A stretch of DNA of 64,000 nucleotides from an uncultured Trueperaceae bacterium (lineage in GTDB: Bacteria; Deinococcota; Deinococci; Deinococcales; Trueperaceae): the NCBI GenBank assembly GCA_963815215.1, contig CAWFFU010000003.1, forward strand, positions 480,001-544,000. The letters are read 5' to 3'. The position numbers and the translations under genes were made by a program. Shown piece by piece: positions 41,087 to 46,007 of this stretch. Under the pieces are notes generated by a model. The model did no database searches. It saw only the letters and a program-made list of their open reading frames with translations, and was not told where the DNA came from. The first letter of the stretch is position 1; every line of letters begins with the position of its first letter.

Positions 41087-41413
41087 ATGGCGGGCCCGAC
41101 CGGGAAGCACGTGCCCCTCAGACGCTGCGTGATGTGTCGCGCGTCGCTGCCGAAGGCGGAGCTCGTCCGCCTGGTGCGGGATGTCGAGGGCCGGTTCGAG
41201 CTCGACCCAACCGGACGTGCGGGCGGGCGAGGCACCTGGGTGTGCCTTCGCTGCGCCCGCGATCCCGCGGAGAAGCGCCTCAAGCAGGCCTTTCGAGGCC
41301 AGTCGGCGCACGTCCGCACGCTGCTCGCCCCCACCGAGGAGGATCCCACCTCCGAGGCAGGCGACGGCGCTCCTCGCGCAAGGCATCGGGACGGAGGCAT
41401 GAATGTCCGATAA
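41087..41413 (+). CDS. ylxR: YlxR (RnpM) family RNA-binding protein
   Basis: HVPLRRCVMCR...KAELVRLV...GRGTWVC; conserved position between nusA and infB. Confidence 0.9.
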   Translation: MAGPTGKHVPLRRCVMCRASLPKAELVRLVRDVEGRFELDPTGRAGGRGTWVCLRCARDPAEKRLKQAFRGQSAHVRTLLAPTEEDPTSEAGDGAPRARHRDGGMNVR

Positions 41414-43208
41414 GGTACGGATCTATCAGCTGGCGAAGGACCTCGGCATCGAGACCAGGGAGATGTTGAGCATCCTGGACGAGATGGGCGTGGAATACAA
41501 GTCGCATTCGAGCACGTTGGAGCACGAGGTGGCCGACACCGTGCGGCAGCTCGTCGCGCGAGACGATGGGGACGCGCAGGCCCCCGCGAAGCCTGCGGCC
41601 ACGGCGGCGGCGACGGGCGCCGGGTCCGGCGCGAGCGGGGCCACGGCAACGGTCGCCAAGCCCAAGGCCGCAGCCAAGGAGGCGGCCGGGTCCGACGCAC
41701 CTCTGCGGGCGCCCGTCGTCACCGTGATGGGCCACGTGGATCACGGCAAGACCACGCTGCTCGACTACATCCGACATACGAAGGTGGCCGAGGGCGAGGC
41801 TGGCGGCATCACGCAGCACATCGGCGCCTACCAGGCCGAGACCAAGGGCGGCATCGTCACCTTCCTCGACACGCCGGGCCACGAAGCGTTCACGTCCATC
41901 CGTCAGCGCGGCACCAACGCCACCGACATCGCCGTCATCGTGGTGGCCGCCGACGACAGCATCATGCCGCAGACGCGCGAGGCCATCGCCCACGCCAAGG
42001 CCGCCAAGGTGCCGATCATCGTCGCGATCAACAAGTGCGACCTGCCTCAGGCGGACCCCGAGAAGGTCAAGCGCGACCTGATGCAGGTCGAGCTGGTCCC
42101 CGAAGACTTCGGCGGGGACACCATCGTGGTCGAGATCAGCGCCAAGAGCGGCGAAGGGGTCGACGACCTGCTCGAGATGATCTCGCTCGTGGCCGAAGTG
42201 GAGGAGCTGCGGGCGGCCCCGGACGGCGGGGCGCGCGGGCTGGTGATCGAGTCGGTGCTCGACAAGCGAGCCGGCGTTCTGGCCACCGTGCTGGTGCAGG
42301 AGGGCACGCTACGTGTGTCCGACTACATCGTTTCGGGAGAGGTCTGGGCCAAGATCCGGCGCCTGACCGACCACACCGGGACCGCCGTGGTCGCGGCCGG
42401 TCCCTCGGTTCCGGTCCAGATCCTCGGCTTCTCCGAGCAACCCAACGCCGGCGACCCGATCGAGGCCGTGGCCGACGAGCAGACGGCCAAGCAGTTGGCC
42501 GAAGGGCGACGCGAGGAGCGTAAGGACGCCGAACGGGAGTCCATCGGACGCAAGGGGCTCACGCTCGCCGATCTCTTCGGCAAGCCCACCAAGAAGATCA
42601 TCAACCTGATCGTGCGGGCCGATGCCCAGGGATCGCTGGAGGCGATCAAGGGGGTGCTCGCGCGAGAGGCGGAGACCACCGAAGAGGTGGACCTCGAGCT
42701 CATGCTCGCCGAGGTCGGCGCCCCGACCGAGTCGGACCTGCTGCTGGCCAGCACCGCCGATGCCACGGTCATCACCTTCGGCGTGACCGCCCCCGGCAGC
42801 GTGAAGAAGTCGGCCGAGCGGCAGAAGGTATCCATCAAGAGCTACAAGATCATCTACGAGCTGATCGAGGACGTGCAGCGCATGATCCGCGGGCAGATCG
42901 AGCCCGAGTTCGAGGAACGGGTCATCGGCCACGCCGAGGTTCGCGCGGTCATCCGCGTGCCCCGCAGCGGCAACATCGCAGGCTCCTACGTCACCGACGG
43001 GGCGATCCGGCGCGGCTCCAAGGCGCGCCTGACACGGGCTGGCAAGGAGGTCTACAAGGGCTCCATCGCTCAGCTGCGACGCTTCAAGGACGACGTCCGC
43101 GAGGTGGCCTCCGGGTTCGAGTGCGGCGTCCACCTACAGAACTACGACAACGTGCAGGAAGGCGACATCATCGAGGCCTACGAGATGGTCGAGGTGACCT
43201 CGATCTGA
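41403..43208 (+). CDS. infB: Translation initiation factor IF-2
   Basis: [31 protein letters not shown]; short N-domain. Confidence 0.98.
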
Positions 43209-43360
43209 CCGGGCTGTGACACCGGTGCCGGAGAGCGCGCAGCCCCTCTCCCTCGTCAACCGCCCCGACCGCGCCCGAGCGTGGCCGGGGCGGAGTCGTT
43301 GACAGCGATGGGACGCCGGGCCCGCCGCACCACGCTACTCCACGCGCTAGAATGGCCGAC

Positions 43361-43714
43361 GTGCAGGCCGCTGTGACGACTCTCTCGCGACGGCGCGGAC
43401 TGGCATTGAGCCTCGCGCTCGCCGCGACGCTGGCGGCCATCCCGTTGCAGCCGTTGGCGGCGGCGGCGCGCGATCCGTCGACCGCCGGCGCCGGCATGGG
43501 GACCCGAGCGCCCCTGATGCTCGAGAGCAGTGCCCGCCTGACCTCTCCCGGCAGCGGAGCGGGAACGTTGCGCGTTCCGGTGCTCCCGGGTCGCGGGCCG
43601 TCCCCGACGCCGCCGGGCCGGACGCCGCCGAGCGCAGCGTTGCAGGGCGCACCCGCGCCCGCGCCGTCGTCGTTGCTGGCCGCGTACGGCAGGCTCCAAC
43701 TCGAAGGCGGGTGA
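43361..43714 (+). CDS. Small signal-peptide, Pro-rich uORF upstream of secDF (candidate arrest peptide)
   Basis: TAGAAT, 7 nt, GTG; SRRRGLALSLALAATLAAIPL signal, Pro/Gly-rich linker, C-terminus YGRLQLEGG. Confidence 0.6.
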   Translation: MQAAVTTLSRRRGLALSLALAATLAAIPLQPLAAAARDPSTAGAGMGTRAPLMLESSARLTSPGSGAGTLRVPVLPGRGPSPTPPGRTPPSAALQGAPAPAPSSLLAAYGRLQLEGG

Positions 43715-43814
43715 GGGCGAGTCCGTCCCTGGCCCGTGGACGCCGGCGGCATGCGTGCGCCGTTGCGCCCTCCCTCCCCCTCAACCCCTCGAACATCCGT
43801 CCTAGGAGACCTCT

Positions 43815-46007
43815 GTGAACCGAAGGACCTTCACCGGCGCAATCGTGGTGGCGGCGATCATCGCGTCCATCCTGTACCTCTGGCAGCCCTGGAGCTCGAC
43901 GGCTCCGCTCAAGCTCGGGCTCGACCTGCAAGGCGGCCTGCGCGTGGTGCTGCAGGCGAACACGGCCAACCCGTCGTCCCAGGACCTGGCGACCGCCCGC
44001 AACGTCATCGAGAACCGCGTCAACCAGTTCGGCGTGTCCGAGCCTCTCATCACCACCTCGGGCAAGAACCGCATCGTGGTGGAGCTGCCAGGCCTCACCG
44101 CCGCGGACCAGAAGCGTGCGCTCGCGCTCATCGGCCAGCAGGCCAAGCTCTACTTCCAACTGGTCAAGCCGTCCGCTCAGAACCTGAGCGTCGCCCAGAT
44201 GAGCCTCACCGATCTCGAAACCCCCGCCTTCACCGGTGAGATCATCAGCACCGCCCGCGCGGACTTCCAGCGTGTCGGCGGCTCCACCACGGGCCCGGCC
44301 GTGTTCTTCAACATCAAGCCCAAGGACGCGGGCAAGTTCGGGGACTTCACCGGAGGCAACATCGGCCGGCGCATGGCGATCGTGCTGGACGGCAAGATCA
44401 TCACGGCGCCGACGCTCCAGTCGCGTATCTCCGACTCGGGACAGATCACCGGCATCCAGTCGCTGGAGGAAGCCAGCAACATCTCGCTCGTGCTCCGCTC
44501 CGGTAGCCTCCCGATCAGCCTCCACGTCGAGGAGATCCGTTCGATCGGCCCGACCCTGGGGCAGGACAGCATCAACGCCGGCAAGGTCGCCGCCTTCATC
44601 GGCGGGGCGGCCGTCGTGGCGGCGGTCATCGGCTACTACGGCCTGGTCTTCGGAGGCGTCCTCACCTTCGGCCTCGGGCTCGCCATGCTGTTCATCTTCG
44701 GCGCCCTGGCCGCCCTCCACGCAGCGCTCACGCTGCCCGGCCTGGCGGGCCTGGTGCTCACCATCGGCGCCGCCGTGGACGGCAACGTCATCAGCTTCGA
44801 GCGCATCCGCGAGGAATTGCGGGCCGGCAGGTCGATCCGGCTCGCCATGAAGACCGGCTTCGGCAACTCGCTGTCCGCCATCATCGATGCCAACGTCACC
44901 ACACTGCTGGCGGCCGCCGCGCTCTACCAGTACACCACCGGCCCGGTGCGCGGCTTCGCGATCACGCTCGCCATCGGCATCATCGCCTCGGTGTTCGTCA
45001 ACGTCGTGGTGGTGCCGTTCATCCTCGACCTCATCACCTCGGGCAAGAGCAAGCGCACCTACCTGTGGAAGGGTTTCTTCGTCGAGGGCATCCGCTTCGT
45101 GAGCAAGGCGCCCGTGATCATGAGCATCTCCGGCCTGCTGGCGGTGGCCTCCATCGCCATCGTGTCGATCGACGGCCTGAAGCTCTCCACCGACTTCACG
45201 GGCGGCACCAACGTGCTGGTCGACGTCCCCAACGGCACCACGGTGGCCGACGTGCGCACGGCCATCACCGATCTGAACTACCCCGGCATCACGGGCAAGA
45301 ACGCCACCGTGGTGAAGGTGATCGACAACACCCTCCAGGGCAACCCGATGTCGATCCGGGTCGGTCTGAACGAGACCGGCCAGCAGAGCGCCGACCAGTT
45401 CGCCAACGACCTCACCGCCAAGCTCAAGGGGCAGCTGTTGCAGGCCAACTACGTCGGCCCCGCCGTCGGGGCCGACCTGCGACAAGCCGCCATCATGGCC
45501 GTGCTGGTAGCACTCGGTCTGATCCTGCTGTACGTGGCGTGGCGCTTCTGGCCTAACTGGATCGTGGCGGTGGCCGCCATCATCGCCACCATCCACGACG
45601 CAGGCATCGTGCTCGGCGCGCTCGACCTGTTCAACGTCACGTTCAGCATCCCGGTCCTGGCGGCGGTCCTGTTCGTCGTAGGCTACTCGCTCAACGACTC
45701 GATCATCATCGCCGACCGTATCCGAGAGAACCTCCGCAAGGTGCGCGACCGCAGCTACGCCGAGGTGGTCGACCTGGCGGTGAACCAGACGCTGTCGCGC
45801 ACGGTGGCGACCTCGGGCACCACGCTGCTGCCGGTGATCGCGCTGTTCCTGTTCGGCGGCAGCGTGCTACGGGGGTTCAGCATCGCGCTGCTCATCGGGA
45901 TCGGGTTCGGCACCTACTCGAGCATCTTCATCCTGTCCCCGATGGTGGTGTGGTTCAAGATGCAGCAGCAGAAGCGCGCCCGCCGCAGCCGGCGGCGCAC
46001 CGCCTGA
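43815..46007 (+). CDS. secDF: Fused protein translocase SecDF
   Basis: LGLDLQGG, RVNQFGVSEP, AVDGNVISFERIREE, DFTGGT, GYSLNDSIIIADRIREN. Confidence 0.97.
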   Translation: MNRRTFTGAIVVAAIIASILYLWQPWSSTAPLKLGLDLQGGLRVVLQANTANPSSQDLATARNVIENRVNQFGVSEPLITTSGKNRIVVELPGLTAADQKRALALIGQQAKLYFQLVKPSAQNLSVAQMSLTDLETPAFTGEIISTARADFQRVGGSTTGPAVFFNIKPKDAGKFGDFTGGNIGRRMAIVLDGKIITAPTLQSRISDSGQITGIQSLEEASNISLVLRSGSLPISLHVEEIRSIGPTLGQDSINAGKVAAFIGGAAVVAAVIGYYGLVFGGVLTFGLGLAMLFIFGALAALHAALTLPGLAGLVLTIGAAVDGNVISFERIREELRAGRSIRLAMKTGFGNSLSAIIDANVTTLLAAAALYQYTTGPVRGFAITLAIGIIASVFVNVVVVPFILDLITSGKSKRTYLWKGFFVEGIRFVSKAPVIMSISGLLAVASIAIVSIDGLKLSTDFTGGTNVLVDVPNGTTVADVRTAITDLNYPGITGKNATVVKVIDNTLQGNPMSIRVGLNETGQQSADQFANDLTAKLKGQLLQANYVGPAVGADLRQAAIMAVLVALGLILLYVAWRFWPNWIVAVAAIIATIHDAGIVLGALDLFNVTFSIPVLAAVLFVVGYSLNDSIIIADRIRENLRKVRDRSYAEVVDLAVNQTLSRTVATSGTTLLPVIALFLFGGSVLRGFSIALLIGIGFGTYSSIFILSPMVVWFKMQQQKRARRSRRRTA

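Follow-up and report, generated by a model that had tools for sequence, protein, structure and literature searches.

We analyzed a 64,000 nt stretch of the genome of an uncultured Trueperaceae bacterium of the phylum Deinococcota (assembly GCA_963815215.1, contig CAWFFU010000003.1, positions 480,001 to 544,000 of the forward strand; hereafter the window), in which a small open reading frame (ORF) lies between infB and secDF. As judged from sequence comparison across the phylum, this ORF is a conserved gene and not a chance frame, and it is near certain that it encodes a translated and selected leader peptide linked to secDF. We somewhat favor the view that the product is a secretion-monitoring arrest peptide of an undescribed family, which would probably stall the ribosome at termination. 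This view develops an earlier note on the same DNA, which had proposed a force-sensing arrest peptide upstream of secDF. The features of the locus are as follows.

41403..43208, plus strand: infB, the gene upstream of the small ORF, encoding IF-2 (Pfam GTP_EFTU, IF-2, IF2_N)
43348..43353, plus strand: -10-like box TAGAAT, starting 139 nt past the infB end at 43208 and followed by 7 nt and GTG
43361..43714 including the stop codon, plus strand: small ORF of 117 aa from GTG, candidate secDF leader/monitoring peptide
43361..43468, plus strand: residues 1-36, putative export signal or signal anchor with a basic n-region (SRRR), the hydrophobic core LALSLALAATLAAIPL and AAAA
43472..43540, plus strand: residues 38-60, conserved block 1 DPSTAGAGMGTRAPLMLESSARL, adjoining the signal, with nearly invariant columns in alignments A1 and A2
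43541..43663, plus strand: residues 61-101, fast-evolving linker rich in Pro, Gly and Ala, predicted to be disordered (predicted local distance difference test, pLDDT, about 45-54)
43664..43711, plus strand: residues 102-117, predicted C-terminal helix (AlphaFold2, AF2, residues 102-114, pLDDT 76-79) and tail SSLLAAYGRLQLEGG, candidate arrest motif
43712..43714, plus strand: TGA stop codon directly 3′ of the Gly-Gly codons, where the ribosome is presumed to stall with this codon in the A site
43715..43814, plus strand: 100 nt spacer from the ORF to secDF, its 3′ half (43766-43803) rich in C and poor in G
43804-43808, plus strand: secDF Shine-Dalgarno (SD) sequence AGGAG, inside the spacer and before the secDF GTG at 43815
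43815..46007, plus strand: fused secDF, 730 aa (Pfam SecD_SecF_C, SecDF_P1_head, SecD_1st, Sec_GG)

The layout described in the earlier note, comprising the ORF coordinates, TAGAAT followed by 7 nt and GTG 43361, the 117 aa length, the tail, the 100 nt gap and AGGAG, was verified on the sequence in every detail, and the claim that no terminator separates the ORF from secDF agrees with a consensus terminator scan of 43000-44000, which returned 0 sites. The ORF ends in LLAAYGRLQLEGG, directly followed by TGA 43712-43714. The window and the majority of the related loci inspected have the order infB-ORF-secDF, and at related loci the infB C-termini adjoin the upstream ORF (uORF); secDF gave a single match in the genome of the window (G000) with an N-terminal query. 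Comparison of the ORF product with Pfam and NCBIfam yielded no family match, Pfam likewise gave none for seven homologues, and an Rfam scan of the window at 42800-44200 returned nothing. The local G+C content of the window is about 70-80%. A 749-aa frame on the minus strand (43347-45596) spans both the uORF and secDF; spurious frames of this kind are common in GC-rich DNA, and it is no gene.

The ORF was traced through related genomes by several searches. In a six-frame search of 41 related genomes, all 9 members of the window's genus carried it (E 5e-60 to 1e-15), as did one other genus, and secDF follows at the same distance in all 11 close loci. A profile of 11 sequences matched 31 of the 128 genomes of the window's family; at 17/17 loci (L031-L047; L, G and P numbers denote loci, genomes and proteins, f and g numbers families and genera) the ORF ends in [ED]GG-stop, that is, Glu or Asp followed by Gly-Gly and the stop codon, with secDF 63-159 nt downstream. 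With a wider profile the tallies, which include one unpublished genome (G118) of which no further use was made, were 58/127 genomes of the window's family and 1/19 of family f5, and 30 of the 31 further loci inspected showed the ORF and then secDF. Weak, non-syntenic and probably fortuitous matches (L012-L020, L048, L049 and a match in G012) were dropped. Searches of protein databases returned 39 matches and 55 representative clusters, all of them unnamed or 'hypothetical' and with only 'Trueperaceae bacterium' and 'Deinococcales bacterium' as organism labels on the matched proteins; look-alikes in the ESM Atlas were only unnamed hypothetical clusters. The [ED]GG end was shared by 85 of the 86 proteins found by profile. 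The exception, P0060, is a 755-aa low-complexity protein with six such stretches and was discarded as a false positive.

Profile searches gave 0/125 in f2, 0/23 in f3 and 0/68 in f4, and a single-protein search missed other families too. As the profiles were blind to the rest of the order, we restarted the search from the secDF side and, in 10 genomes and then at 60 loci across the phylum, searched just upstream of it for an ORF that spans 80 codons or more and ends in [ED]GG-stop. A tail-bearing ORF was present at 47 of these 60 loci, which represent five families: 10/11 in f3, 16/19 in f4, 11/12 in f2 (inferred to be the Deinococcus family), 2/5 in f5 and 8/13 in Trueperaceae genera missed by the profile. 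The background is low: of the 410 stop-to-stop ORFs in the window that reach 80 aa, 2 end in [ED]GG. Tails at the pooled loci read RLYLLYxRLQLEGG, LLGRRQTDGG, LMRLQLEGG and similar, and a degenerate DNA pattern of the f4-type tail retrieved six named records, all from Thermus (T. arciformis, T. thalpophilus, T. igniterrae, T. parvatiensis and two Thermus sp.). A search started from one Thermus-type protein gave no confirmed relative. The test proposed in the earlier note came out in its favor: across the order, relatives carry a uORF in synteny, and both its signal and a terminal RLQLEGG-like motif are conserved.

The pattern of nucleotide substitution points to selection on the peptide. The last eight codons vary synonymously between loci, with Gly encoded by GGC, GGA, GGG or GGT, Arg by AGG, CGG or CGC, Leu by CTC, CTG or TTG and Glu by GAA or GAG. 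Pairwise counts over ten loci gave ratios of nonsynonymous to synonymous divergence (dN/dS) of 0.45 for the signal, 0.17 for block 1, 0.67 for the linker and 0.23 for the last 14 codons. Because synonymous divergence (pS) is equal in the linker (0.58) and the tail (0.57), selection acts on the peptide and not on an RNA element beneath the tail. The tail is GRLQLEGG in close loci and GRRQLDGG in the most distant of the 11, and the middle of the protein is hardly alignable.

The anatomy of the peptide was compared over 109 pooled loci, which were chosen by their tail, so that the tail itself was left uncounted there. A hydrophobic window is present in 106/109 homologues, and P28 is invariant in the alignments. 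AF2, supplied with a 28-sequence alignment, predicts only two helices, at residues 3-26 and 102-114 (pLDDT about 76-82), with values below about 55 between them. These results bear out the description of the ORF product as an export signal, a spacer and a short ordered C-terminus, with the linker predicted to be disordered. A further expectation, that only the signal and the terminal motif would be conserved, was not entirely right: both are conserved, but so is a second block after the signal, with the pattern GxGM..P.L.LE..aR, and close loci keep AAAHDP..GAGMGTRAPLMLETGARL. The C-terminus lies 73-100 residues past the end of the hydrophobic core (median 85.5, 10th-90th percentile 79-89, 106 loci), a distance that is held although the linker sequence is not conserved. 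A Tat-type signal, considered because of SRRR, was rejected as the twin Arg is not kept in relatives.

The tail consensus of the 85 database proteins is L(-12) x x [LFY](-9) [GQ] [RQK] [LWR] [QLR] L(-4) [ED] G G, in which L(-12) and L(-4) are nearly invariant. Pro is absent from the last 12 positions in all 85, as the non-RAPP-type motif proposed earlier would imply. The motif abuts the stop codon in every member found. Over the 109 pooled loci the stop is TGA in 62, TAG in 29 and TAA in 18, and this use of all three stop codons implies no single release factor; stalling specific to release factor 2 (RF2) was rejected because TAG and TAA are in use too. The choice of stop tracks the clade, being mostly TGA in the window's family and TAG or TAA at 29/29 loci of f3 and f4, including Thermus (TGA 0/29). 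A ubiquitin-like role of the Gly-Gly tail was also rejected, given the export signal and the lack of a predicted fold.

A plausible start of the ORF is retained in each lineage by differing means. In the window an alternative ATG at 43352, which would give 120 aa, overlaps TAGAAT. The arrangement TAnnAT, 7 nt and GTG is kept in 11/11 close loci (L001-L011), as TAGAAT, TACAAT, TAAGAT or TATCAT, and occurs also in other genera (L034, L035, L038, L042), which suggests a leaderless or near-leaderless transcript. The overlapping ATG is replaced by ATA in one of the 11 close loci; since the box with its 7 nt and GTG is conserved while the ATG is not always, the leaderless GTG start assigned in the earlier note is supported. 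A consensus promoter scan of 43000-44000 returned 0 sites, a scan that requires a -35 element and is silent on a leaderless -10 box. In genus g12 (L031, L033, L036, L039-L041, L043-L046) the uORF start overlaps the infB stop as GTGA or TGATG behind GAGGTG, suggesting translational coupling to infB, and in Thermus the ORF begins 8-10 nt past the infB stop.

The ORF has the layout of published monitoring substrates. According to excerpts of the survey by Fujiwara et al. (PMC10987492), uORFs of secA, secDF and yidC were screened for four properties: lack of an annotated function, a signal or transmembrane segment at the N-terminus, conservation of the C-terminus, and a spacer longer than 30 aa from the signal to where the conserved motif ends. 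The ORF studied here is a small, unannotated frame on the same strand that ends 100 nt before secDF; its N-terminus combines a basic n-region with a hydrophobic core, in the AF2 helix 3-26; its C-terminus is conserved in the database proteins (85/86 with [ED]GG) and at the secDF-side loci (47/60); and its spacer spans 73-100 aa (n = 106). The same excerpts indicate that the published pipeline depended on annotated upstream genes. The main texts of this survey and of Sakiyama et al. (PMC7897499) mention neither Deinococcota nor Truepera nor Thermus. Deinococcota are in the input list of the 2024 survey (PMC10987492), and none appears in those of its arrest-peptide tables that were compared, a comparison that covered the material short of the larger supplementary files. 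The full-text literature on arrest peptides with secDF, Deinococcus or Thermus yielded no description of an [ED]GG-stop family. The motif fits no described arrest motif, and the family is apparently undescribed in the literature searched.

These features can be joined in a model of secretion monitoring. The ORF would be translated from its own leaderless GTG or, in other genera, by coupling to the infB stop. As the N-terminal signal emerges, the C-terminal helix (L..[LFY]G R L Q L) would still be in the exit tunnel of the ribosome, and Glu/Asp-Gly-Gly at the peptidyl-transferase center, with the stop codon in the A site, would block or slow release so that the ribosome parks. Engagement of the signal by the Sec machinery would drag the chain out and lift the block, possibly with SecDF pulling block 1 at the periplasmic side. 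The parking time would then report export capacity and tune the expression of secDF 60-160 nt downstream. Regarding the last step of translation, Gly before the stop gave the slowest release of the residues tested in a eukaryotic assay (excerpt of PMC10802582, citing Pierson 2016), and the eukaryotic values are reported there to correlate with those of bacterial RF1 (r = 0.98) and RF2 (r = 0.94).

A bolder form of the model is offered only tentatively. The Thermus/Deinococcus phylum as a whole would then possess an arrest peptide of new chemistry, in which the helix and [ED]GG block hydrolysis by both RF1 and RF2, as the use of all three stop codons would demand, combined with a ruler that senses SecDF. 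The fixed spacer of ~85 residues would set block 1 just outside the SecYEG channel during parking, where SecDF could seize block 1 and pull, so that the cell gauges SecDF activity directly. As Thermus ribosomes are classic material of structural work on the ribosome, such a peptide would offer that system a natural stalled complex.

Several observations weigh against an arrest peptide that controls secDF, and those on the RNA side bear on the pairing noted earlier between the ORF end and the spacer. GAGGGCG at 43713-43719, over the stop codon, is indeed the exact reverse complement of CGCCCTC at 43766-43772. This pairing is no more than expected by chance, as 46% of 2000 dinucleotide shuffles of 43695-43830 contained at least one perfect 7-bp inverted pair and 14% contained one touching the stop region. 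Nor is it conserved: in the closest relative, with an ORF product 93% identical, CGTGCTC replaces the partner. For 43695-43830 the z-score of the fold energy is 0.10. RNAalifold, applied to the spacer of 11 close loci, returned five weak pairs with zero compensatory changes and no conserved structure from the stop to the SD. Computed over 101 loci, the unpaired probability from the SD to the start codon was 0.45 in the free RNA and 0.46 when a ribosome footprint covered the stop (Wilcoxon p 0.66), and a control block placed mid-spacer gave the same outcome; thermodynamic folding is a weak test of an SD switch. The most obvious pairing in the minimum-energy fold of the window, between the G-rich end of the ORF and the CCUCC tract, would act in the opposite sense to unmasking, since a parked ribosome would, if anything, free this tract to mask the SD. 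A SecM-like switch that unmasks the SD is not supported by these models. In the same fold, at 43799-43828, GUCCU before the SD pairs with AGGAC of secDF codons 4-5 in a hairpin that encloses the SD and GTG; the 3′ arm lies in conserved SecDF N-terminal codons, and its conservation is therefore uninformative.

On the peptide side, block 1 and the narrow range of spacer lengths are unlike most described Sec monitors, whose spacer lengths vary widely according to excerpts of PMC10987492, and would suit a small protein with its own job. An obligate C-terminal motif is equally expected of a docking, sorting or degradation tag. The tail is also decayed at some loci: in genus g57 (L142, L143) it reads ..RLQLEGC-stop or ..RLQLEGC followed by 27 more codons, at L172 ..GRLQL-stop and at L111 ..SRWLE-stop. 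Further, L134, a Thermus-type locus, has a frame shift inside the ORF, L092 (G046) has no clear tail, and four Trueperaceae genera (G017, G014, G022, G024; L103-L106) carry no such ORF between infB and secDF; these two genes adjoin or overlap at L103 and L104, and a gap of 64-113 nt separates them at L105 and L106. Absence of the ORF from some genera speaks for the arrest peptide, however, in that repeated loss or decay is expected of a dispensable regulator. In G014 and G078 an open frame of about 1340 aa runs across the secDF match.

Outputs other than SD unmasking were considered. Because the spacer is C-rich and G-poor and the window's genome encodes Rho, a parked ribosome that shields a Rho loading site may be an alternative output in the window's family, by analogy with known leaders. 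C exceeds G in 86 of the 106 spacers, namely in 58/62 of the window's family (f1) and 11/12 of f2, with no skew in f3 and f4. TnaC of E. coli stalls at its own stop, and the parked ribosome blocks the loading of Rho on the adjacent spacer; the C-rich spacer and the Rho gene found here could fit such shielding, although TnaC is a cytoplasmic peptide that responds to tryptophan and carries no export signal. Six Thermus loci (L126:788-897, L127:162-271(-), L128:784-893, L129:782-891, L178:603-712(-), L179:603-712(-)) share a predicted spacer hairpin with a GGGAAGG loop, showing compensatory changes in 6/11 pairs of the hairpin and in 8/25 over the whole predicted structure. A conserved CTTCCCC(C)GGC downstream in the Thermus spacers is complementary to the hairpin loop. 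A long-range helix is predicted as well, joining the last uORF codons to a position some 80 nt downstream. Rfam returned nothing relevant for seven Thermus-type loci. The modeled Thermus structure may be a clade-specific switch, in which case the RNA output may differ between clades.

The same conserved features could belong to a small exported or membrane-anchored protein with a function of its own, such as a SecDF accessory or an envelope factor, that is co-expressed with secDF and involves no programmed stalling. Block 1 and the amphipathic C-terminal helix with its free Gly-Gly would then be motifs for binding, sorting or turnover. Two short conserved motifs joined by a linker of near-fixed length (79-89 aa in 80% of the 106 loci) do resemble a tether, motifs at the extreme C-terminus are typical of tags read by other proteins, and block 1, the most constrained segment, would sit outside the ribosome during a stall. 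No RNA-switch signal was found, and the profile of YajC (PF02699) gave no match at E <= 0.01 in the window's 97%-complete genome, with one match in the Thermus thermophilus control. Yet Thermus carries both YajC and the ORF, which is thus not simply a YajC replacement. AF2 predicts no folded domain and no family matches the product, four Trueperaceae genera have lost the ORF yet keep infB beside secDF, and the layout agrees with every published criterion for monitoring substrates. We regard a protein of this kind as rather unlikely.

It would be less probable still that translation of the ORF acts in cis without force sensing, by handing ribosomes on from infB, by protecting the spacer from Rho or RNases, or by bringing the mRNA to the membrane; in the last variant the signal peptide would carry the secDF mRNA there while the ribosome lingers at the slow Gly-Gly-stop. 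The overlap of the ORF start with the infB stop in g12 and its position 8-10 nt past that stop in Thermus would suit such a role, as would the C-rich, G-poor spacers of the window's family and f2 with Rho present, and Gly as a slow substrate of release. However, twelve conserved C-terminal positions, block 1 and a fixed spacer are not needed for it, and the ORF is uncoupled from infB in the window's genus, where a promoter-like box of its own precedes it. Long spurious ORFs are common at about 70-80% G+C, the antisense frame of 749 aa being an example, and the ORF might on that ground be a chance frame or a gene-caller artefact with conservation stemming from RNA or promoter elements. The comparative data already contradict this extremely improbable explanation: five families, low-GC members among them, retain the frame together with its start signal and the precise place of its stop, changes at conserved residues are synonymous, only 2/410 background ORFs share the tail, and neither an Rfam match nor a conserved structure was found.

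Export-monitoring arrest peptides are known from Proteobacteria, Bacillota, Actinomycetota and Bacteroidota, and the main texts of two large surveys name none from Deinococcota. If stalling is true, the family would extend such peptides to a new phylum and bring in a new motif that ends in Gly-Gly-stop, together with a natural stall at the termination stage that is not bound to one release factor. It would also provide an endogenous stalling sequence for Thermus/Deinococcus ribosomes. As secDF sits in or behind the nusA-infB translation operon, stalling would further raise the question of how the level of SecDF is set. If there is no stalling, the ORF would still encode an unannotated small protein with two conserved short motifs that accompanies SecDF across the order.

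The candidate peptide can be compared with known systems, following what excerpts of the cited papers state. SecM and MifM have the same genetic layout and presumed logic; there the stalled ribosome opens a stem that hides the SD, and no such conserved stem was found here. The tail has no Pro in its last 12 positions and in this differs from the RAPP-like/RQH family with ApdA, ApdP, ApcA and SecM (R-A-P-P, R-A-G-P, R-A-P-G). YajC (PF02699), the usual small partner of secDF, is not matched by the ORF or by seven homologues. VemP of Vibrio, encoded upstream of secDF genes, is secreted and acts as a monitor; export cancels its arrest, and its arrest segment is helical in the tunnel (PMC5449182). 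It arrests in elongation, controls the paralogue secD2/F2 and has a spacer of about 133 aa (PMC10987492), whereas the ORF described here precedes one secDF, has a spacer of about 85 aa and places the stop directly after the motif.

Stalls at a stop codon have precedents in leaders of secDF or secA. In Bacteroidota, uDF_NAP-stop and uA_NSP-stop (PMC10987492) are uORFs of secDF and secA with invariant last residues at the stop, and toeprints locate the stop codon to the A site. Pro, after Asn-Ala or Asn-Ser, is the final residue of both, in contrast to the Gly-Gly of the tail described here. In Bacillota, uDF_DGMK-stop and LudP (PMC10987492; bioRxiv 10.64898/2026.10.26.761930) are signal-bearing uORFs directly upstream of secDF. 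They belong to another phylum and have no detectable sequence relation to the present family, and stalling is shown for them and inferred here; the likeness is one of architecture only. Their tails read D-G-x-K-stop, compared with [ED]-G-G-stop, which brings the acidic residue and Gly one position closer to the stop and lacks the Lys. The conserved tail of uDF_DGMK-stop abuts the stop, which is required for arrest (PMC10987492), and the tail of the present family abuts the stop too. LudP is able to arrest at a stop as well (bioRxiv 10.64898/2026.10.26.761930); it places a helix in the tunnel and then an acidic residue and Gly near the catalytic center, and the peptide from Deinococcota is predicted to place a helix and then [ED]-G-G.

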